The position numbers were made by a program, and so were the translations under genes. Of a stretch of 44,698 nt of DNA, positions 1-44,631 are shown one piece after another. Source of the stretch: Shigella phage 1b; sequence record OR420686, one strand, 5' to 3'. Under the pieces are notes generated by a model. The model saw nothing but the letters and a program-made list of their open reading frames with translations. It was not told the DNA's origin and made no database searches. How positions within the stretch are numbered: position 1 is the first letter of the stretch; every line of letters starts with the position of its first letter.

Positions 1-252
1 TTATTTCGTCTCCCAGCGGTCAATCGTTCTTGCTTCGGATGCAACCGCAAAGCGAACATATTCCAGATTGGAGTCTGCCCAAATATAAAAGTCGGGGTTA
101 GTAAAGGTGGTGCGCTTAATTTGCGCGGGGGTGTTACGGCGTTTATCTATTACGGCAACTCGTGACTGAAAGCTGCCGATGCGTTCGAATAGCCAATAGT
201 ACGGGCGCTGGTCGCGGGAATCCACCGCCTCAATTAGCGTGAAGCGTGCCAT
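1..252 (-). CDS. hypothetical protein (83 aa)
   Basis: Complete ORF in the track; GAGGA Shine-Dalgarno about 7 nt upstream of the ATG at 252; no motif recognised. Confidence 0.5.
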   Translation of the reverse strand: MARFTLIEAVDSRDQRPYYWLFERIGSFQSRVAVIDKRRNTPAQIKRTTFTNPDFYIWADSNLEYVRFAVASEARTIDRWETK

Positions 253-300
253 TGTCTCATCCTCTAAGAAGAGGCCCGCAGATTAGCGGGCCGGGTAATA

Positions 301-831
301 TTAGTCTTCCAGTTCGAAATAGGTTTCTACAATTTCTTTCAGATCTTTGTGGAAGTCTTCTACGTCGTCATCTTCCAGTTTAGCGATCGATTTGATCTCG
401 AACGCTTCCAGCAGGTCATCAAATTCGTCGTTCGCATCATCATCATCACCGCCTGCAATAATAGCGGCATACTGCTTGATTTCGTCGCGCATTTCTGCCA
501 GCGGATCAGCTTCTTTCTTACCTTTGCCTTTCGCTTTCTTAGTCTTCGCCGGAGCTTCTTCTTCCGCTTCGTCGTCTTCATCTTCTACTACTCCCTTCTT
601 AGCCTTACCCTTAGACTTGGTTTCTTTTGCCGCGCCTTTTTTCGTTTTAGGCGTATCTTCGACTTCGTCCTGGTCGTCGTCTTCGACTTCGGTCTCCGGC
701 TTGGCCTTGCCTTTCTTAGCAGTGCCGTTTGCTTTTGGGTCTACGGCAGCGCCAACGGTTTCATAATGTTTAGCGATGATTTCCAGTGCTACTACGCCGC
801 GAGTAATCAGGTTTACGATTTGTTCAAACAT
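301..831 (-). CDS. highly charged Lys/Asp/Glu-rich protein (176 aa)
   Basis: Track ORF 301..1059 trimmed to the internal ATG at 831 (MFEQIVNL...), which has a GGAGAT RBS; the upstream extension overlaps the predicted promoter and is not protein-like; alternating KKGKAK and DDD/EEE tracts. Confidence 0.6.
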   Translation of the reverse strand: MFEQIVNLITRGVVALEIIAKHYETVGAAVDPKANGTAKKGKAKPETEVEDDDQDEVEDTPKTKKGAAKETKSKGKAKKGVVEDEDDEAEEEAPAKTKKAKGKGKKEADPLAEMRDEIKQYAAIIAGGDDDDANDEFDDLLEAFEIKSIAKLEDDDVEDFHKDLKEIVETYFELED

Positions 832-1027
832 GGTATATCTCCGATTGGTTAAGTTTAGGTGTCGGCAGTTAACTTCGTCGGTGGCCTTAACATATTGCCT
901 GGTTACGCGTTCTCCCGTTCGGGTAGTGGACCAGGTTATATAATCACGGTTGGGAATCCTGACACTTCGATCCGGCCCCTGCGTTGCCCCTCTCCAGTTT
1001 GCGTCCTGCATCCTGTCGACGGAGTGA

Positions 1028-1056
1028 ATATTAGATTGGTTGCATGAGGGAGTCAA
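1028..1056 (-). promoter_or_regulatory. sigma70-like promoter (TTGACT-N17-TAATAT) reading leftwards toward the 831 gene
   Basis: Hexamers read on the reverse complement; an ATTGGTTGCA motif lies in the spacer. Confidence 0.4.
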
Positions 1057-1065
1057 CAACTAATT

Positions 1066-1101
1066 TAAAAAAAAAGCGCCGAAGCAAAATGCGACGGCGC
1101 T
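1066..1101 (-). terminator. rho-independent terminator-like hairpin with a 9-nt U tract on the minus strand
   Basis: agcgccg...cggcgct stem preceded on the plus strand by A9, so followed by U9 on the minus strand. Confidence 0.4.
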
Positions 1102-1171
1102 AACCAATAAGAGACAATGAGACGGGGATTATTATTACACGCGTGCGCGCCTGTTTCAATATCCAAAGGAT

Positions 1172-1231: not shown

Positions 1232-1561
1232 ATGAATGTAAACGACGCAATCGAAATGTTAACTAAGACTGTTTGCAGTGAGACTAGCCGGTCCTGGGCG
1301 TATACCGATGCCGTGGGTGCGGTGCTATTTGAAATCGAACGTCTGCGCAGTGTAGAAAAAGAATTGCGCGCGAAGCTGGAATTACTCAACGGTACTGCAG
1401 CAAGCAAGCTGCAAAAGCACAATGAAGAAATGGAAGAATACAAAAAGCAGGTTATCCGTTTGCGCGCCGAGGGAAAATCCTGGGCGATGATTGCCGAGTT
1501 GACCGGAATTAATCAGAGCACAGTGCGCTCCTGGGTCCGCAATAATAAAACTTCTAAGTAA
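1232..1561 (+). CDS. helix-turn-helix DNA-binding protein (109 aa), putative transcriptional regulator
   Basis: C-terminal HTH-like segment GKSWAMIAELTGINQSTVRSWVRN; N-terminal coiled-coil-like region; first gene after the divergent promoter region. Confidence 0.6.
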   Translation: MNVNDAIEMLTKTVCSETSRSWAYTDAVGAVLFEIERLRSVEKELRAKLELLNGTAASKLQKHNEEMEEYKKQVIRLRAEGKSWAMIAELTGINQSTVRSWVRNNKTSK

Positions 1562-1571
1562 GGCCACGGCA

Positions 1572-3836
1572 ATGAGCTTAATTAAATTCGCTGTAACACG
1601 ACCCGCTAAAAAAGGCGAAAAAGCCAGGGCGGAAAACTTCCAGATGACCACCGAAGAGTTTTTCGAATTTATCAATGACGCGAAAGAAATCTCATCGGTG
1701 CACATCAACAAGACCGAGGATAAAGCCGAGTATGCGCGCCGCAAGCGTAAGGCCGATGGCATCGTAGCGTATACCAGTGACGGCTTACGCCGCAAGACCA
1801 GTGCGGTGGACCGCTCGATCCTGTTCTTCGATATTGACCGTACCGACACCCGCACCCTACGCCGCTGCCGTAAGGCTTTCATCGACGCGGGTCTGGAACA
1901 CGTATTTCACACCACAACCGGCGACCGCCACCCACTGAAAGGCGGCACGCGTTGCGCTCGCTTCCTGGTACTCACTGACAAGCCTGTACCGGCTGAAGAC
2001 CTGGGCCGTGTCCAGTATGCGCTATTACACCAACTTGGGCTGTCAGATGTGGACTTCGACGATTGCACGAAAGACACAAACCGCCTGATGTACCTGCCAC
2101 ACCAGCAGTCTGTAATAAAGTGTCACTACGGCAAACGTGCCCGCGTCCGTCGTCTGCTTCGCCTGGCGGATAAGTTGGGCGTGGAGAAAGAGGAAGTACG
2201 CCGCGAGCTTACCCAGGGCGACGACGCAGTGGCGGACGGGATTCTGGACTGGTGCTTCCAGGCAGGATTCGAGGAGTTATCTTCCGGTCGCGGTTATGAA
2301 GTGCCGTGCCCTAACGAACACCTGCACAGCGGCGAAGGGTCCACCGCCATAATGGTCAAGGATGGTGAGATCCGTTTCAAGTGTATGCACTCCGGCAACG
2401 AGTGTTGCTCGGAGCTGAACAGACACCAGCACCTGGCGCTGCGTCTTATCGGGATTCCGGACCACCTGAACGTCGAGCCACACAATATGTCCCGTAAGCA
2501 AATCGCCGCCATCCTTCCGGGACTGGACGACGAGGAAGTGGAGTCGTGCTATGAACATATTGTTGATGCGGTTGGCGACGGCGAAGAATACGGCGTGTGC
2601 ACCGATGCGGATCTGGATAACGAGCCGGTTGCGCTGTTCAGTAAGCACGACCCGATTATCGAGGGGTTGATTAACTTCAAATCGACCTGGTATATGGCGG
2701 GTGAGTCGAATATCGGTAAGTCTTTCTACGTGCTGGGTCAAATGGGCGCGGTCGCCGCGGGTATTCCGTTCGGCGGCGCGAAGGTCGTCCAGTCTCATTG
2801 CTTCTATTTCGACGCGGAAGGTGGTGAAGCCTCCAACCAGCGCAAAGAAGCATTGCAGATTAAATATGAGCACGACCTCGACAAGCTGCACATTATCGAT
2901 CTGCAATCTCGCGGCTGGGATATCACCAGCAAATCTGGCTTGCGCGAAGTTATCAGCTTTATCAACCGCACGGCTAACGGCGAGCCGGTTGGCCTGGTGG
3001 CGTTCGACTCACTCAACCAGACTGTCGCGCTGCGCTCCGCCGAGGCTAAACCGTTCGACGAGAACAACGCCAGCGATATGGGTGAAGTGGTCAAAGCGCT
3101 GAAGGCCATCGCGGAGAACACAGGCGGCAGTGCGGGCGTCATCCACCACCCGGCGAAAGGTGCAAACGGCAGCAGAACCCCACGCGGGTCCGGCGCGCTG
3201 CATGGTGCTGTCGATTCCGCTTTCTTCCTGGAACAGCCGGACGACAACCAGCCGGGTCAATTGAACCTGTATCACGAAAAGTCACGTAACGGCATCAAGC
3301 AAGCGCCGCGTGGCTTCGTCCTGCTCAAGTGCAAGGTTAAGGTGGATCTCCGCAAGTCAGAGGCGTTCGAGGCGCACCAGTCCACCAGCACCGGGCCAGA
3401 CTTCGGCGACGTGGTTGCCGGTTGGGACGTCAAGCCAATTGCCGCCACACCACGCGACGAGACTCTGTACCTCGTACCGGTCGCCCTGGCGCCGTTCGCC
3501 ATCGAACAGGCGAAGGCAGCAGGCAAGGCCGCGGTTAAGGAAGAGAACACCGCCGGACCGCGCAACGAAAAAGAGAAAGTGCTTTATGCGGCACTGGAAA
3601 AACTGATGGAAGATAACCCGGACCATACTGGATTCAGTAAATCGGCAATTGTCCGCCAGGCTGGGCTGGCAAAAGGTGGCACGTCGACGAAGGCAATCGA
3701 CGATATGGTCGAGCGCGGAGTGATAGGTTTTTACACCGATCCGCACACCGGGGCCATCTATGGGTCGTCTAATTTGGTCATCAAATCGGATATCCCCATC
3801 ACGCTTTCAGCGACCGATGACGATTTAAAAGATTAA
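1572..3836 (+). CDS. primase-polymerase (AEP-like) fused to a RecA-like helicase/ATPase (754 aa)
   Basis: N-terminal ILFFDIDRTD (hhhDhD-type) and FHTTTGDRH motifs; Cys/His zinc-binding cluster CPNEHLHSGEG...CMHSGNECC; Walker A GESNIGKS and Walker B-like LVAFDSLNQ. Confidence 0.75.
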   Translation: MSLIKFAVTRPAKKGEKARAENFQMTTEEFFEFINDAKEISSVHINKTEDKAEYARRKRKADGIVAYTSDGLRRKTSAVDRSILFFDIDRTDTRTLRRCRKAFIDAGLEHVFHTTTGDRHPLKGGTRCARFLVLTDKPVPAEDLGRVQYALLHQLGLSDVDFDDCTKDTNRLMYLPHQQSVIKCHYGKRARVRRLLRLADKLGVEKEEVRRELTQGDDAVADGILDWCFQAGFEELSSGRGYEVPCPNEHLHSGEGSTAIMVKDGEIRFKCMHSGNECCSELNRHQHLALRLIGIPDHLNVEPHNMSRKQIAAILPGLDDEEVESCYEHIVDAVGDGEEYGVCTDADLDNEPVALFSKHDPIIEGLINFKSTWYMAGESNIGKSFYVLGQMGAVAAGIPFGGAKVVQSHCFYFDAEGGEASNQRKEALQIKYEHDLDKLHIIDLQSRGWDITSKSGLREVISFINRTANGEPVGLVAFDSLNQTVALRSAEAKPFDENNASDMGEVVKALKAIAENTGGSAGVIHHPAKGANGSRTPRGSGALHGAVDSAFFLEQPDDNQPGQLNLYHEKSRNGIKQAPRGFVLLKCKVKVDLRKSEAFEAHQSTSTGPDFGDVVAGWDVKPIAATPRDETLYLVPVALAPFAIEQAKAAGKAAVKEENTAGPRNEKEKVLYAALEKLMEDNPDHTGFSKSAIVRQAGLAKGGTSTKAIDDMVERGVIGFYTDPHTGAIYGSSNLVIKSDIPITLSATDDDLKD

Positions 3837-39566: not shown

Positions 39567-41858
39567 CTACTTGCGGTAGCGATACATGCAATCGCCCTCT
39601 GCGGCAAGCGGGAAGCCTTTCGCCCAAACAGGCAGGTCGCACATCAGCGCGCATAGCTCCTCGGTCGTGTAGTCGTCAGTATCCGGCACTTCGGTTATCA
39701 ATTCATCGTGCACTGACAGTACGATCTCATAGCCCGCGGCTTCAACACCCGGCATGGACCATGCGAGAATATCGCGACACAGCGCCTGCACGATGTTCTC
39801 CGTCAGTTTGCCGCCGTAGGTATACTGGAAGCCCCACTGGCGCGTAGTCTGATTCTCGCCCTGGTATTTGATGCGGGTACTTGTGCGCTTCTTGCCGGTG
39901 TCTTCGTCGATCTCAGTCGTGACAGACAGCGCGATGCCGGGATAGCTCATGATGCGCCCCGACGGCAACTCAATTTTCAACCACCACCCTGCGGCGTTCG
40001 GGTCGTCGCGCTCCTCGTCGAAGGTTGGGTCATGCTTCGACTTCGTGCGGACTATCTTGAGCGCTTTCTTACCATCCGGGCGAACGTTCGCACCCGCCCA
40101 GTATGCTTTGCCAGGATTGCGGATTGCGCAGAGCACCGCGTCTTCCAGTTCGGCCCAAAATGCAACCGTCATCGGGTGAGACTCACGCCACATGCGTTTG
40201 ATCGCGTCACACGTCAACCACACGTTTTTCGGCAGTATGTAAGTTGGGCGCTCGTCTTTCTTGCCAGGCTTCGGCGGGCGCTTGGCTTCGTTAATGCGGG
40301 CATACTCATAACCACGTTTCGCCGCGGCCCAAATATGATCGGGGAATGTGCCCTTCATGACGTCCGCCATCGCATACAGGTCGAGGCCCAGGTTTTTAGC
40401 AAACTGCAGGAACGCTGCAACACCGCCACCATAGCCCAACCCCAATTCGCACGCCTTACCAATCTGGCGCAAGTCTTTGCGGTTGGCTTTGATGTATTCC
40501 GGGTCGAGGCCAAACATCTTACCGGCAGTCTCACAATAGATATCACGACCGGCCTTAAACACCATTAGCGCGGTTTTCTCGCCAGCGATCCAGGCAAGCC
40601 CGCGACCTTCCACGTTAGAATAGTCAGCTACAACAAACTTCTTGCCCTTAGCCGGAATAATGCACCCGCGAACGGTCGAGGCCGTTAACTTCGATATGTC
40701 ATACGCCCAGTGCGCTGTCCCGCGTAACAGGGAGTTGATGCCGTTGGTGAGCATGTGCGACCGGACCCAAAAAGAAACGTCGCTCTCTCCCTCGCGGCGC
40801 TTAATCTTCCCTTCGTGGTCGTCGCTATACTCGCCGCGCGCCAGGTTTTGCGGCTGGAAGCCTTTACCCGCCCAGCGTAGCGTGCGTTTTGCCCCACCAT
40901 ACTGGAGACACCCACGACGGCGACCATCGGCGGATAAGCCATTCACGAGCGGATTATACTTAGTCGATGCCGTTGATGACGCACCGAGGCGCATCTCGAT
41001 AAGCACTTTGCCTTCGTCGGGGAAGTCCGGGTCTTCCAGCAGGTCGTTAAGTGTGGATTTCTGCGCGTTGTGGATTGTGAACGCAGGCGCCAGGTCGCGC
41101 AGCGCTGGCAGGAAGTCATTGCCGGTCAGCTTACCGCCGAAGCGCTCCCATGCTTCTTCCTTCAATTCTTCCTTATGCGCCTGCACCGCTTTGATCGCGG
41201 CGTTCGCCAGGTCAACGTCCACATAGAAGCCGCGGTCGTTGATCAACTGGTCAATAAGCAGGATTTCATCTTCCTTCGGCGTGTTGCCCCAGTCCGGTAT
41301 ACGCCAATAGACTTCCCTCATCGCGATGATATCCAGCGCGGCATAGCGCAGGAATTTAGCCCATTCGTCAGGGTGCGTCTCGCGGGTGTAGCGGCGAATT
41401 TTGTATGTCTTAGGGGTAGGCTTACAGAAGCGTTTGATCAGCGCCTTGCCCGCCTTATCCTTCGCGTGCTCTGCGTCAACGCCCAGCACCTGGCACTGCA
41501 TATCGAGGCTACCAGGAAGCGCGTGGCGAAAGGCCATAATCATGGTATCTTCAATCTGGCTTACCGGCAGGTCGATTCCCCACTTCTCACGGATAACCAG
41601 GCGGTCAAACAGGAGGCCGTTAGCCATCACGATTTTTGCTTTCTTGCGGGATACCTGGCGGAGCGCCTTGCGCAGTTCACGCGGCATTGTTGGGGATTCA
41701 GTGGCGTCCCATGTCTGCACGCGGCCCTCGTCGATGGCGTATGTGCAAATCATAATCTCGGTTGTTGGGTGCTCTGCGTAGGCGTACGCCCCTACTTTCT
41801 TCAGGTCCACCCCGCTAAATGTCTCGGTATCGAGAAATAGGCGTTCGAAGTCTTTCAT
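39567..41858 (-). CDS. family A DNA polymerase (Pol I-like) with 3'-5' exonuclease domain
   Basis: N-terminal exonuclease motif FLDTETF; polymerase motifs including RQIGKACELGLGYGGG and VLSVHDELITEV; GAGGA RBS. Confidence 0.9.
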   Translation of the reverse strand: MKDFERLFLDTETFSGVDLKKVGAYAYAEHPTTEIMICTYAIDEGRVQTWDATESPTMPRELRKALRQVSRKKAKIVMANGLLFDRLVIREKWGIDLPVSQIEDTMIMAFRHALPGSLDMQCQVLGVDAEHAKDKAGKALIKRFCKPTPKTYKIRRYTRETHPDEWAKFLRYAALDIIAMREVYWRIPDWGNTPKEDEILLIDQLINDRGFYVDVDLANAAIKAVQAHKEELKEEAWERFGGKLTGNDFLPALRDLAPAFTIHNAQKSTLNDLLEDPDFPDEGKVLIEMRLGASSTASTKYNPLVNGLSADGRRRGCLQYGGAKRTLRWAGKGFQPQNLARGEYSDDHEGKIKRREGESDVSFWVRSHMLTNGINSLLRGTAHWAYDISKLTASTVRGCIIPAKGKKFVVADYSNVEGRGLAWIAGEKTALMVFKAGRDIYCETAGKMFGLDPEYIKANRKDLRQIGKACELGLGYGGGVAAFLQFAKNLGLDLYAMADVMKGTFPDHIWAAAKRGYEYARINEAKRPPKPGKKDERPTYILPKNVWLTCDAIKRMWRESHPMTVAFWAELEDAVLCAIRNPGKAYWAGANVRPDGKKALKIVRTKSKHDPTFDEERDDPNAAGWWLKIELPSGRIMSYPGIALSVTTEIDEDTGKKRTSTRIKYQGENQTTRQWGFQYTYGGKLTENIVQALCRDILAWSMPGVEAAGYEIVLSVHDELITEVPDTDDYTTEELCALMCDLPVWAKGFPLAAEGDCMYRYRK

Positions 41859-42083: not shown

Positions 42084-42869
42084 TTAACGGCGGCGACGTT
42101 TGCGTGGTGCTTCGTCTTCGTCGTCGTCCTCATCATCTTCGTCATCGCGTGGCTTACGACGTTTACGAGGTTTCTCGTCTTCGTCTTCGTCATCGTCATC
42201 GCGGCGCTTGGATTTTTTGGACTTGCGCGGTTTGTCGTCTTCGTCATCGTCATCACGACGTTTTGACTTTTTGGACTTACGCGGGCTTTCGTCTTCGTCA
42301 TCGTTGTCCAGGTCTTCGTCGGAACATGAAGACCCGCCACCGCCGAAGGCTTCGCCGTCTTCACGGAATCGCAGACCCAGCAAGCCCGCCCCAAGACCCT
42401 TGCCGTTGGTATTGTTCCACGCCCAAATATCGAGGGACACGTTGCAATAACAACCGGAATAGATCTCCTGGCCTTCGATCTCGTCGCCTTCTACGGTCAG
42501 ACCTTGTTCCGTCTGCTTCTCGCCCAGTGACGTTTGGATGTTAGGCTGTTTGAACGATTTAGCGTTGATGTACAACATGCCTTCAAATTCTTCGGTTACT
42601 TCGTCACGCTCGTCACCGTCGCGAACTGCGCATTCCTTAGAATCCTGGGCGTAGTGGCGGTCCATCCACTTATCGGCATTCTTCTCGGATTTCAGCTTGT
42701 CGGTGAGCACTGCGCGCGCTGCCGCTTCCACTTTGTCCACCTGCGGATCTTCTTTATCAAGAAGAATCACGGCGCGGTATGCCGGTTTTTGTCCATCCTG
42801 TTTAGGGGTGTCACGTTCCCAAATTTTCAGGAAACATACGCGCACATTTTTCAGGTTGACTTTCGCCAT
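42084..42869 (-). CDS. ssDNA-binding-like protein (DUF2815/T7 gp2.5-like) with a long repetitive acidic/basic C-terminal tail
   Basis: Track ORF trimmed to MAKVNLKNVRVCF (GAGGAG RBS); N-terminus typical of phage gp2.5-like SSBs that pair with a DUF2800-type exonuclease; C-terminal 90 aa are alternating DDDDEDE and KSKKSKRR tracts. Confidence 0.5.
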   Translation of the reverse strand: MAKVNLKNVRVCFLKIWERDTPKQDGQKPAYRAVILLDKEDPQVDKVEAAARAVLTDKLKSEKNADKWMDRHYAQDSKECAVRDGDERDEVTEEFEGMLYINAKSFKQPNIQTSLGEKQTEQGLTVEGDEIEGQEIYSGCYCNVSLDIWAWNNTNGKGLGAGLLGLRFREDGEAFGGGGSSCSDEDLDNDDEDESPRKSKKSKRRDDDDEDDKPRKSKKSKRRDDDDEDEDEKPRKRRKPRDDEDDEDDDEDEAPRKRRRR

Positions 42870-42963: not shown

Positions 42964-43202
42964 GCGTTTTTATTAAAAAGATTTCTGGTAACGTAGTTGG
43001 TCGCGTTCTCGATCCAGCTTAACGGCGGGCGGTTGATGTTCTTCTCCACCCAATCGACGGCAGCTTCGCTATAGCCGTCATCCAGCCAGCGGGTCGGATG
43101 TCGAATCATCCACGCCACCATTAACACGCCTTGCACGCAATGCAGGATAAATCCAAGCGCGCCGATAACAAACATCAATAAGATTGCGAATACTTTATTC
43201 AT
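42960..43202 (-). CDS. small membrane protein (80 aa)
   Basis: N-terminal hydrophobic helix (VFAILLMFVIGALGFIL); GAGGA RBS. Confidence 0.5.
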   Translation of the reverse strand: MNKVFAILLMFVIGALGFILHCVQGVLMVAWMIRHPTRWLDDGYSEAAVDWVEKNINRPPLSWIENATNYVTRNLFNKNA

Positions 43203-44631
43203 TACTTAAGTCCTCGTCGGTAGCTTCAGACCACGCGGGGCGCGGGTCGTCGATAGGAGCTAATACCGGTTTAGCCGGTGCGCGCGTGATTTTATCACAT
43301 AATTTTGCCCACACTTTCGGCTTCTCGTCCTTAAGTACCTTCTCAGCGTCGGTAGGACTGAGCAATGTTTCTTTGTACATCACATCGCGCTTGATCCTGG
43401 CCTTCGTGAAGATTTCGATCACTTCGCTTTCGTCCGCCCACTTGCGAATCCCTTCCTTTCCGGCAACCATCTTGAGGCCCAGCGATTCGCCATCCCCCGC
43501 CATTACCGCTTTGAATACCGCGGACTCGATAGCTTTGATGTGCTGGCGCATTGCGTCCAGGCCCTCATAAGCCTTGCGCAGTTCCGCAGCGCTCATAGCG
43601 CCGGGGGCCGCTTCTTTCTTACCACGCTTCGCACGTCGTGCCGCCTTCCGGGCTTCGCGGGCCATATTGCGGTCGTGATTGGCGCATTCTTCCTCTGTCG
43701 CAATACTCACGTCGTCGCCCAGGTCTTCGTCTGTTGCCGTTGGTGGGGTCATCGTGTCGATTGCGGCCTTCGCCCGGGCGCTGCACTGGTCTGCAAATCG
43801 GCACCACTGGCACGCATCGACGCTGGGCCGGAAGTCCGCGCGGGTTAGCCCCTTCTTGCCGCGGGCGTATGCATCGAGCGCGGCGATAGCACGCTTGGAC
43901 GCAAACTTCGCGAATATCTCCAGCGCTTCCACGGTAATATCCCACTCCGACGCCCCGCCGCAATACGGCTGGAAGATGACCAGGCGCACGGTTGTTATGT
44001 CGTACATAGTTTGCAGCTTGCGCAGCAGGCCGAGCGCGTACAACATAAGCTGTTTGTTTTCTTTCGCCTCGACCTTATGCCGCCCAGTCTTCAGGTCGCC
44101 AACAATCAGCATGTACGTACCGTCGGTCTTCTTCATGACCATGACCATATCGGCGGTGCCGAATGTCTTAACCCGGTTGCCGTCGATCTCGAAGCCAGAG
44201 TGTAGGACGCGGGTTAGTTCGGCGCGCATCTCAAGCTGAACAAACTCCGCCACTTCGAGGAGCGGTCGCCAGTGGTCGATGTACGCGTCGCACTGTTTCA
44301 CCATATCGTCATTGACCAGTACGCCGCCTTTCGGCGCTTTCGGGTGTGCCTTTACTGGCCCCTTACCTTCGTTCTCGACGTAACATCCTTTATATGTCTT
44401 TGCGGTTATCGTCTTTTCACCGGCGATAATGCGGTTTAGCACCACTTCAGATACGGTGTGCATACTCGTACCGTTAATCGCGGCCTGCCCGGATTCGTTC
44501 GGGATATCTTTTTCTACCACCAGGGCGGCAGGGCAACCCATCCATTTTTTAGCACCGGATGGACCAAGTAATGAGTGTTCCGTATTGCTACCGGATTGCG
44601 TTTTACGTTTTGGTTTAATCGCCATGGACAT
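43195..44631 (-). CDS. PD-(D/E)XK exonuclease (DUF2800/RecB-Cas4-like) with C-terminal Cys cluster
   Basis: N-terminal LLGPSGAKKWMGCPA signature, GTADMVMV and IVGDLKTGRHK...QLMLYALG nuclease core, CQWCRFADQC cysteine motif. Confidence 0.7.
   Translation of the reverse strand: MSMAIKPKRKTQSGSNTEHSLLGPSGAKKWMGCPAALVVEKDIPNESGQAAINGTSMHTVSEVVLNRIIAGEKTITAKTYKGCYVENEGKGPVKAHPKAPKGGVLVNDDMVKQCDAYIDHWRPLLEVAEFVQLEMRAELTRVLHSGFEIDGNRVKTFGTADMVMVMKKTDGTYMLIVGDLKTGRHKVEAKENKQLMLYALGLLRKLQTMYDITTVRLVIFQPYCGGASEWDITVEALEIFAKFASKRAIAALDAYARGKKGLTRADFRPSVDACQWCRFADQCSARAKAAIDTMTPPTATDEDLGDDVSIATEEECANHDRNMAREARKAARRAKRGKKEAAPGAMSAAELRKAYEGLDAMRQHIKAIESAVFKAVMAGDGESLGLKMVAGKEGIRKWADESEVIEIFTKARIKRDVMYKETLLSPTDAEKVLKDEKPKVWAKLCDKITRAPAKPVLAPIDDPRPAWSEATDEDLSNE

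Follow-up and report, generated by a model that had tools for sequence, protein, structure and literature searches.

The acidic tail of T7 gp2.5, that phage's SSB (single-stranded DNA-binding protein), interacts with the T7 DNA polymerase/helicase. Such electrostatic contacts between a charged tail and its partners organise the T7 replisome, which pairs a gp2.5-type SSB with a Pol I-type polymerase. Phage annealases, through their C-terminal domains, and mediators contact SSB tails or a partner exonuclease (PMC11846896, PMC6393309). The C-terminal domains of these single-strand annealing proteins (SSAPs), as known from 80alpha Sak (8qe9), lambda Red-beta (6m9k) and lambda Orf/NinB (1pc6), are helical bundles of about 60 residues, flexibly tethered and found in a phage recombination context. 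A gp2.5-like SSB also belongs to the widespread "duf2800-gp2.5-polA module" (PMC8093625), which tailed phages of Gram-negative, Gram-positive and Bacteroides hosts carry as one of their most frequent cassettes for replication and recombination, and the SSB of this module triggers defence systems such as Retron-Eco8 and Hachiman (bioRxiv 10.1101/2022.08.27.505566). Here we describe a highly charged 176-aa protein encoded at the head of this module in Shigella phage 1b (record OR420686), whose 44,698-bp sequence, referred to as the window, is the complete genome of a Dhillonvirus, a siphovirus of E. coli.

The charged protein shares with the SSAP domains a flexibly tethered helical bundle of similar size, the C-domain, whose best, though weak, sequence and structure similarities are to those domains, and the setting is also alike, a PD-(D/E)XK exonuclease and an SSB/annealase being encoded just downstream. 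Unlike them, its C-domain is joined to a 29-residue helix and a polyampholyte linker with no annealase core, and at a net charge of -20 it is much more acidic than they are, a feature that would go with an SSB tip that is basic and not acidic. Relative to T7 the arrangement is inverted: in T7 the SSB's own tail is the acidic element, whereas the SSB in the window has a basic tip and a separate protein would supply the acidic part. We tentatively propose that the charged protein may be a stoichiometric adaptor, or organiser, of the DUF2800 / gp2.5-like SSB / PolA replication-recombination module, a possibility that we put forward with limited confidence. The sequence itself is not new, since hundreds of deposited genomes already carry the gene without a name for it; what is new is its recognition as a conserved component of the module with probable relatives across phyla, the selection on its charge patterning and its link to an SSB tail of reversed polarity.

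Architecture and charge pattern of the protein

The open reading frame (ORF) is confirmed from the sequence, and so is every charge block named in the initial annotation: the Lys-rich KKGKAK, KTKKGAAKETKSKGKAKKG and KTKKAKGKGKK and the acidic EVEDDDQDEVED, EDEDDEAEEE and GGDDDDANDEFDD. The product as a whole carries a net charge of -22, with an isoelectric point (pI) of 4.5. Alignments of 24 Dhillonvirus homologues, or of 31 sequences once distant relatives are included, together with AlphaFold2 (AF2) models, resolve the three-part layout of the family PHROG 3127, namely a conserved N-terminal helix (N-helix), a variable charged linker and a conserved C-terminal helical domain (coordinates in Table 1). 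A shallow alignment gave a poor AF2 model, and the anatomy is taken from a deeper one, in which the N-helix spans residues 2-29 (predicted local distance difference test score, pLDDT, 75-79) and the C-domain is built from helices at residues 110-127, 131-143 and 154-172 (pLDDT ~90), while the linker has a pLDDT below 50 in both models and is disordered. Across 19 Dhillonvirus loci the ratio of non-synonymous to synonymous substitution (dN/dS) is 0.09 over the N-terminal 30 codons and 0.04 over the C-terminal 68, and the charged-protein gene is therefore real and under purifying selection, which is strong at both ends of the protein.

The N-terminus had been described as a short hydrophobic segment. 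The segment is there, but it is an amphipathic, heptad-like helix that includes charged residues and provides no membrane anchor; in distant relatives it takes the form M[LF][ED]KFLxLLERFVVAHELIAAN. A TolA/TonB-like, membrane-anchored protein was accordingly rejected because conserved charged residues (D/E3, K4, E10, R11 and E17) lie within the helix. A GDSDEC loop was also weighed for its resemblance to the DSL motif of an acyl carrier protein (ACP) and set aside, as its Ser varies, being Asp in Dhillonvirus, and no match to an ACP was obtained. In some family members (P0109, P0112 and P0113) two tandem copies of the C-domain follow a single N-helix, which suggests that the C-domain may be an independent module able to add valency.

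The linker is conserved in its pattern and not in its sequence. Residues 31-108 have a net charge of -1, with 55% of the residues charged, and the charges are segregated 7.3 standard deviations above shuffled sequences, a value that none of 5000 composition-preserving shuffles reached. This blockiness recurs in most of the divergent relatives, with z >3 in most lineages, even though the linker sequence itself is not conserved, and its length changes by insertions and deletions from about 0 to about 80 residues among homologues, leaving it nearly gone in some Dhillonviruses (P0078, P0093). No strong DNA-level tandem repeat was found inside the linker of this genome, unlike the SSB tail described below. 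In this respect the charged protein offers a small natural case in which selection acts on how charges are patterned and not on the sequence.

A family without relatives in Pfam, NCBIfam or PDB

The protein matches PHROG 3127 over its full length (phrog_3127, E 1.9e-49; its residues 1-176 align to profile positions 1-178). This family, to which no function has been assigned, includes the "13.88 kDa late protein" of Salmonella phage MB78 and corresponds to pVOG VOG1545. Foldseek against BFVD recovered the MB78 protein (Q9T1Z8) together with eiAU gp46. A word-indexed search returned 105 homologue clusters, each of them on contigs of about 44 kb, and an exhaustive search with the C-domain profile gave 37 cluster representatives at E<=0.001, nearly all of them short (115-212 aa, and a few fragments), with the C-domain at the C-terminus and none fused to another domain; a single 5435-aa outlier matched on a short acidic stretch only and looks like a composition artefact. 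tblastn places the family in 528 phage records of GenBank, from Dhillonvirus, from Jerseyvirus and Kagunavirus of the Guernseyvirinae and from Serratia, Klebsiella and Edwardsiella phages, where it is annotated as "hypothetical" or as "13.88 kDa late protein".

Homology to a known structural or housekeeping family would have spoken against the initial annotation, and none was found in Pfam, NCBIfam, PDB or PHROG; in the first three, sequence searches with the protein and with the family profiles returned no relative. Matches to KIF9, BUD22, nucleoplasmin, UTP23 and an ACP desaturase were driven by composition or insignificant, and fold searches gave generic helical bundles only. A Rad52-like or RecT annealase core is absent from the protein and from all 37 family representatives, and the DNA-binding domains of HU/IHF, H-NS, TF1 and p6 gave no match in Pfam, NCBIfam or PDB. 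Nothing usable was found in the literature on the MB78 "late protein" or on Dhillonvirus transcriptomics.

Expression in infected cells

Proteomics of the Dhillonvirus EE09 detected four phage proteins in cells 25 min post infection, CDS29, CDS40, CDS56 and CDS61, while cell-free lysates yielded 24 proteins, including 16 of the 17 predicted structural ones, with CDS56 absent (PMC10673088). Comparison with the EE09 record identifies CDS56, annotated there in a long form, as the orthologue of the charged protein and CDS61 as the gp2.5-like SSB. The peptide evidence for CDS56 in infected cells answers the concern that the gene might not be expressed at all (PMC10673088). Since this orthologue is among the four proteins seen in cells and is absent from the lysates, the protein must be produced in quantity, and in particles it is not detectable. 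The same absence argues against an injected or a structural role, and the suggestion that the protein might be injected is thus disfavoured.

Conserved position in the module and probable wider relatives

The order family gene, DUF2800, DUF2815, PolA, with a helix-turn-helix (HTH) protein and a primase-helicase transcribed divergently, was present in every group examined, that is, in the window, other Dhillonviruses, Jerseyvirus, Serratia phage Otaku, metagenomic relatives and Kosakonia phage Kc259. A Kc259 protein of 180 aa, encoded two genes upstream of DUF2800, scores E 4.5e-10 against the family profile and, as it matches both PHROG 3127 and PHROG 18562, bridges these two families. With dN/dS at 0.04-0.09 and with the family in so many phage records (528), the charged-protein gene is a core gene of the module and not an accessory one.

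In phages of Streptococcus (Javan102), Gardnerella (AB1), Terrisporobacter, Faecalimonas and Bacteroides, proteins of about 100 aa that belong to PHROG 408, 18562, 3709 and 5053 lie directly upstream of DUF2800. They occupy the same position in the module as the charged protein and share its plan of an N-helix, a P/K/E-rich linker and a C-terminal helical domain, but differ in their size, in a short linker without strong blockiness and in a near-neutral C-domain, and the SSBs that accompany them keep a canonical acidic DDDFLA tip, unlike the SSB of the window. The family profile finds these proteins at E 2e-4 to 0.1 as the top non-family matches among 720 ORFs, the reverse search, with their own profile, recovers Kc259 (4e-5) and Otaku (8e-4), and hhalign aligns the two sets over the C-domain with 82% probability (P 1e-5). 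On these profile comparisons, remote homology between PHROG 3127 and the small proteins of Gram-positive and Bacteroides phages is probable, not proven. The small proteins are often mislabelled "rRNA biogenesis protein rrp5". In addition, a 222-aa protein of a Bacteroidota phage (Phocaeicola phage BD26P2_00047; L031 285-953), encoded further upstream, matches the profile of the Gram-positive small proteins at E 5e-6 among 720 ORFs, which hints that the superfamily may also occur in larger forms. A small and abundant protein appears to travel with this cassette and to have been overlooked under such labels as hypothetical, "rrp5", "late protein" and "prohead core".

An SSB tail of reversed polarity

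The tail of the SSB in the window (42084-42304, minus strand) alternates poly-D/E blocks with PRKSKKSKRR blocks and ends in PRKRRRR. It is built on an 18-aa unit and is reflected at the DNA level in a 54-nt tandem repeat at 42181-42304 (2.3 copies). T7 gp2.5 and the DUF2815 proteins of Gram-positive phages have tails of the opposite polarity, acidic and with an aromatic end. Arg/Lys-rich SSB tips are also found in Jerseyvirus, Otaku, Kc259 and metagenomic relatives, while the SSBs of the Gram-positive and Bacteroides groups have the canonical acidic tip of the DDDFLA type. In this clade, blocky polyampholyte disordered regions occur in both the charged protein and the SSB. Moreover, a basic SSB tip (+5 or +6) goes with a C-domain of net charge -9 to -21, and a DDDFLA tip with one of -4 to +1, a co-variation in keeping with the C-domain and the tip of the SSB touching directly through complementary charges.

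A weak similarity points in the same direction. Compared by hhalign with the C-terminal domain of 80alpha Sak (8qe9), the C-domain scores a probability of 63% as a single sequence and, with P 2e-5, 76% as a profile (P 2e-5 to 7e-5 over both comparisons), and the Sak chain recurs, again weakly, in two PDB profile searches (E 0.2-0.4) and at rank 6 in Foldseek. Homology of the C-domain to the C-terminal domains of SSAPs is thus suggested by these alignments but stays unproven.

Proposed role in the replication-recombination module

The role proposed above draws on the synteny, the remote homologues at the same position, the conservation expected of a core gene, the abundance of the protein, the weak similarity to annealase C-terminal domains, the charge co-variation and the matching blocky regions, and this evidence points to an accessory role linked to the module, from which we infer the function as follows. 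The charged protein would be a non-enzymatic, abundant, non-virion accessory protein of the replication-recombination module. Its C-terminal bundle would act in the manner of an SSAP C-terminal domain, such as those of 80alpha Sak and Red-beta that dock on SSB tails or on the partner exonuclease, with the charges reversed, so that the acidic C-domain would bind the unusual Arg/Lys-rich tip of the phage's own SSB tail or some other basic surface within the module. Self-association or intramolecular docking may come from the N-helix, and the blocky linker may add multivalent electrostatic contacts of low specificity, both to DNA and to the SSB tail, which is just as blocky. In combination, these elements would gather up and order SSB-coated phage DNA together with the proteins of recombination and replication. 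As in T7, electrostatic contacts involving a charged tail and its partners would then organise the machinery.

Several observations weigh against this proposal. The charge co-variation rests on essentially two clades and so amounts to about two independent observations; hhalign against the C-terminal domain of Red-beta gave no match (probability 0.15%), and the Gram-positive relatives showed no match to the Sak domain. A host protein, the polymerase, the primase-helicase or the nuclease could equally be what the acidic domain binds. KGK motifs are missing from about half of the relatives, and the MB78 homologue bears the name "late protein".

A stronger form of the proposal, which we regard as speculative and rather improbable, is that the charged protein, the SSB and single-stranded DNA form a multivalent electrostatic network (a complex coacervate) that would serve as a membrane-less compartment for replication and recombination, the small protein then being a long-missed fourth core component of the module in the form of an SSB-tail adaptor. 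Behind it stand three points: among the non-structural proteins of these phages, the charged protein and the SSB are the two made in greatest abundance; each has a blocky polyampholyte disordered region; and the SSB tip has changed from acidic to Arg-rich. A defence-escape study of the Dhillonvirus SECphi4 yielded mutations in the SSB and the polymerase and not in the charged-protein gene. If the protein is an SSB-tail adaptor or organiser, a component would be added to the model of gp2.5-type recombination-dependent replication, and it could matter for recombineering tools and for the sensing of these phages by defence systems; if it is only a decoy for host takeover, it would be one more acidic inhibitor.

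Alternative functions

The alternative that survives best, although we consider it unlikely, is that of a DNA mimic or decoy for host takeover, as the initial annotation had suggested, in which the acidic C-domain, perhaps oligomerised by the N-helix, would occupy the DNA site of RecBCD, a restriction enzyme or H-NS and so protect the incoming linear genome. The charge of the protein (-22 overall, -20 in the C-domain) is of the right kind, the gene comes first behind a host-type promoter and its product is made in large amounts (PMC10673088), and no credible Gam-like inhibitor was found nearby, the "gamma" label of a neighbouring gene resting on its HTH only. T7 Ocr, T7 gp5.9, lambda Gam and ArdA are likewise small, very acidic, helical proteins expressed from host-type promoters; the charged protein, however, matches neither the sequence nor the fold of Ocr, ArdA, Gam or other mimics, is a conserved core gene and has Lys-rich blocks, which mimicry leaves unexplained. 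Anti-defence genes are usually variable accessory genes, whereas this one keeps its place heading the replication module even in phage groups whose hosts differ widely, and its probable Gram-positive relatives have near-neutral C-domains. The acidity noted initially stands, but a role in host takeover fits poorly with a conserved, syntenic position in the core of the module across distant phage groups.

Doubtful, and somewhat more so, is an architectural DNA binder of the HMGA or histone-like kind, in which the KGK/RGR blocks would bind, in the minor groove, AT-rich stretches of the phage DNA such as the origin or promoter region between the divergent operons, and the acidic domain would moderate this binding or recruit replication proteins. 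HMGA and HMGB combine basic DNA-binding elements with an acidic tail, and AT hooks beside an acidic region are features of both HMGA and CarD. The disordered charged protein resembles HMGA and the HMGA-like domain of Myxococcus CarD in its repeated, basic, glycine-centred motifs beside acidic stretches; across the family [KR]G[KR] occurs 40 times against 6.1 +/- 2.4 in shuffled sequences (6.5-fold enriched), and some relatives have AT-hook-like cores (KRGRP within VKRGRPAKPK; KPKRGRKP twice in Serratia phage Otaku). The linker is disordered and the protein abundant, as such a role would have it. An R-G-R-P core with basic flanks is, however, not found in the window protein, which has KGK only, the RGRP/KRGRK cores occurring in L019 and Otaku, and the protein further differs from HMGA in its folded, conserved end domains and its strongly acidic character. 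No Pfam DNA-binding domain is present, each basic block of the net-neutral linker has an acidic one beside it, about half of the relatives lack the motif, and the linker is almost nil in P0078 and P0093 and short in the Gram-positive relatives, the terminal domains being the conserved parts. Of the histone-like character first proposed, the AT-hook-like KGK/RGR motifs of the linker are thus borne out, and the net charge of -22 speaks against it.

A regulator of the operon, acting on transcription, antitermination or its own translation through the conserved leader or the host RNA polymerase (RNAP), appears improbable. The gene is the first of the operon, its leader is unusually conserved and structured and a conserved promoter-plus-terminator unit lies just upstream, and Foldseek returned faint matches to entries for the RNAP beta-flap and T4 gp33 (E 1.6). 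These matches are not significant, though, regulators are rarely among the few most abundant proteins of a phage, and a block of the leader is missing in 4 of 19 genomes in which the protein is unchanged. Charged, disordered proteins also occur among scaffolds and internal head proteins. A structural or morphogenetic protein, or one that is packaged and injected, can nevertheless be dismissed as highly improbable, since the annotation "prohead core protein" in a single GenBank entry (phage UDS3lw) is set against a position in the replication operon far from the morphogenesis genes, a sole PHROG match to a family of no assigned function, with none to any structural family, and the absence of the orthologue from lysates in which nearly all predicted structural proteins were seen (PMC10673088). 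What probability the adaptor proposal and these alternatives leave falls to some function of another kind.

Gene boundaries and regulatory elements

The initial annotation placed the gene first in a leftward operon, behind a promoter and a leader of about 190 nt, and all of this is borne out (Table 1); the operon's description as early, in contrast, derives from the type of promoter alone. In 16 related genomes both promoter hexamers persist, in some with TTGACT bettered to the consensus TTGACA, and the Shine-Dalgarno sequence is kept in all aligned loci. A longer in-frame ORF, from TTG 1059 or ATG 1011, was considered as coding and rejected. Stops or deletions break the extension in 7 of 19 loci, while the protein begins MFEQ in every locus compared, and the 176-aa form is therefore the correct one. 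Many deposited records (e.g. OL615010 gp47 and OR756193 CDS56) start the gene 60-76 codons early, giving products of 207-247 aa, and the overlong extension so annotated (832-1059, minus strand) overlaps the operon promoter.

Table 1. Coordinates of the charged-protein gene, its regulatory elements and its neighbours in the window
Feature	Position	Strand	Remarks
Coding sequence of the 176-aa charged protein	301..831	-	stop TAA 301-303 included, ATG 831-829; PHROG 3127
Amphipathic N-terminal helix, residues 1-29 (MFEQIVNLITRGVVALEIIAKHYETVGAA)	745..831	-	near-invariant in Dhillonvirus; dN/dS 0.09
Disordered blocky polyampholyte linker, residues 30-108	508..744	-	three KGK motifs: KKGKAK, KSKGKAK, KAKGKGKK
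Hyper-acidic three-helix C-terminal domain, residues 109-176	304..507	-	net -20; dN/dS 0.04
Shine-Dalgarno GGAG	839..842	-	spacer 7 nt to ATG
5' leader, 190 nt	832..1021	-	start point inferred; holds hairpin 898-935
Sigma-70-like promoter TTGACT-N17-TAATAT	1028..1056	-	9/12 matches
GC-rich hairpin, 7 bp all-GC, then weak T tract	273..292	-	directly after the stop, before gene 1-252
83-aa protein, next gene after the charged protein	1-252		PHROG 4965
DUF2800 PD-(D/E)XK nuclease	43195-44631		same operon
gp2.5-like SSB/annealase, proposed partner	42084..42869	-	Pfam PF10991, DUF2815; the first of the highly charged proteins in the initial annotation

The length of the leader follows from a transcription start predicted near 1021. 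Its mean pairwise difference is 3.2%, against 16-34% at synonymous sites of the charged-protein gene, and within its hairpin, which has a CCNGG...CCNGG stem, the central pair 933/900 covaries as A-U, U-A, C-G and U-G. The folding stability of the whole leader is no greater than that of shuffles, and an Rfam search of the leader and the region upstream gave no match. The block cleanly missing from 4 of the 19 related loci measures about 130 nt. The hairpin at 273-292 is possibly a partial terminator or a stabiliser of the mRNA and may raise the abundance of the first cistron over the rest of the operon, which would fit the EE09 proteomics.

Just upstream of the operon promoter lies a second and better promoter-like site, TTGAAA-N17-AATAAT with an extended TG (1159-1131, minus strand), followed after about 25 nt by a strong intrinsic terminator, with its stem at 1100-1076, a U9 run at 1075-1067 and a folding z of -3.3. 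Site and terminator (1067-1159, minus strand) are both kept in 16 of the 16 genomes compared, and the unit could encode a small RNA of about 55 nt or be an attenuator feeding the operon.

Neighbouring genes and related records

The window is permuted, such that the leftward operon begins near 1056, leaves the left edge and resumes at the right end. Downstream of the charged protein the operon encodes an 83-aa protein, the DUF2800 nuclease, the gp2.5-like SSB/annealase, DNA polymerase I (39567-41858), an SNF2 helicase and a Dam methylase, and an HTH protein and a primase-helicase (1572-3836) are transcribed divergently from it. A 109-aa protein on the divergent side (1232-1561, plus strand) is labelled a transposase, a resolvase or a "DNA recombination nuclease inhibitor gamma" in different records. 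As only its C-terminal HTH is supported (HTH_23, HTH_28, sigma-70 region 4), it is more likely a small DNA-binding regulator.

Over 3 kb the window is 92-94% identical to phages UAE_MI-01, NHEP3, EC115 and SSL-2009a, and matches occur in 177 GenBank phage records. "Campylobacter phage A144" (MG065648.1, 35 kb, unannotated) is 91.7% identical to the window over 3 kb, and single Acinetobacter and Sodalis records likewise match; all three are probably contaminants or carry mis-assigned hosts.

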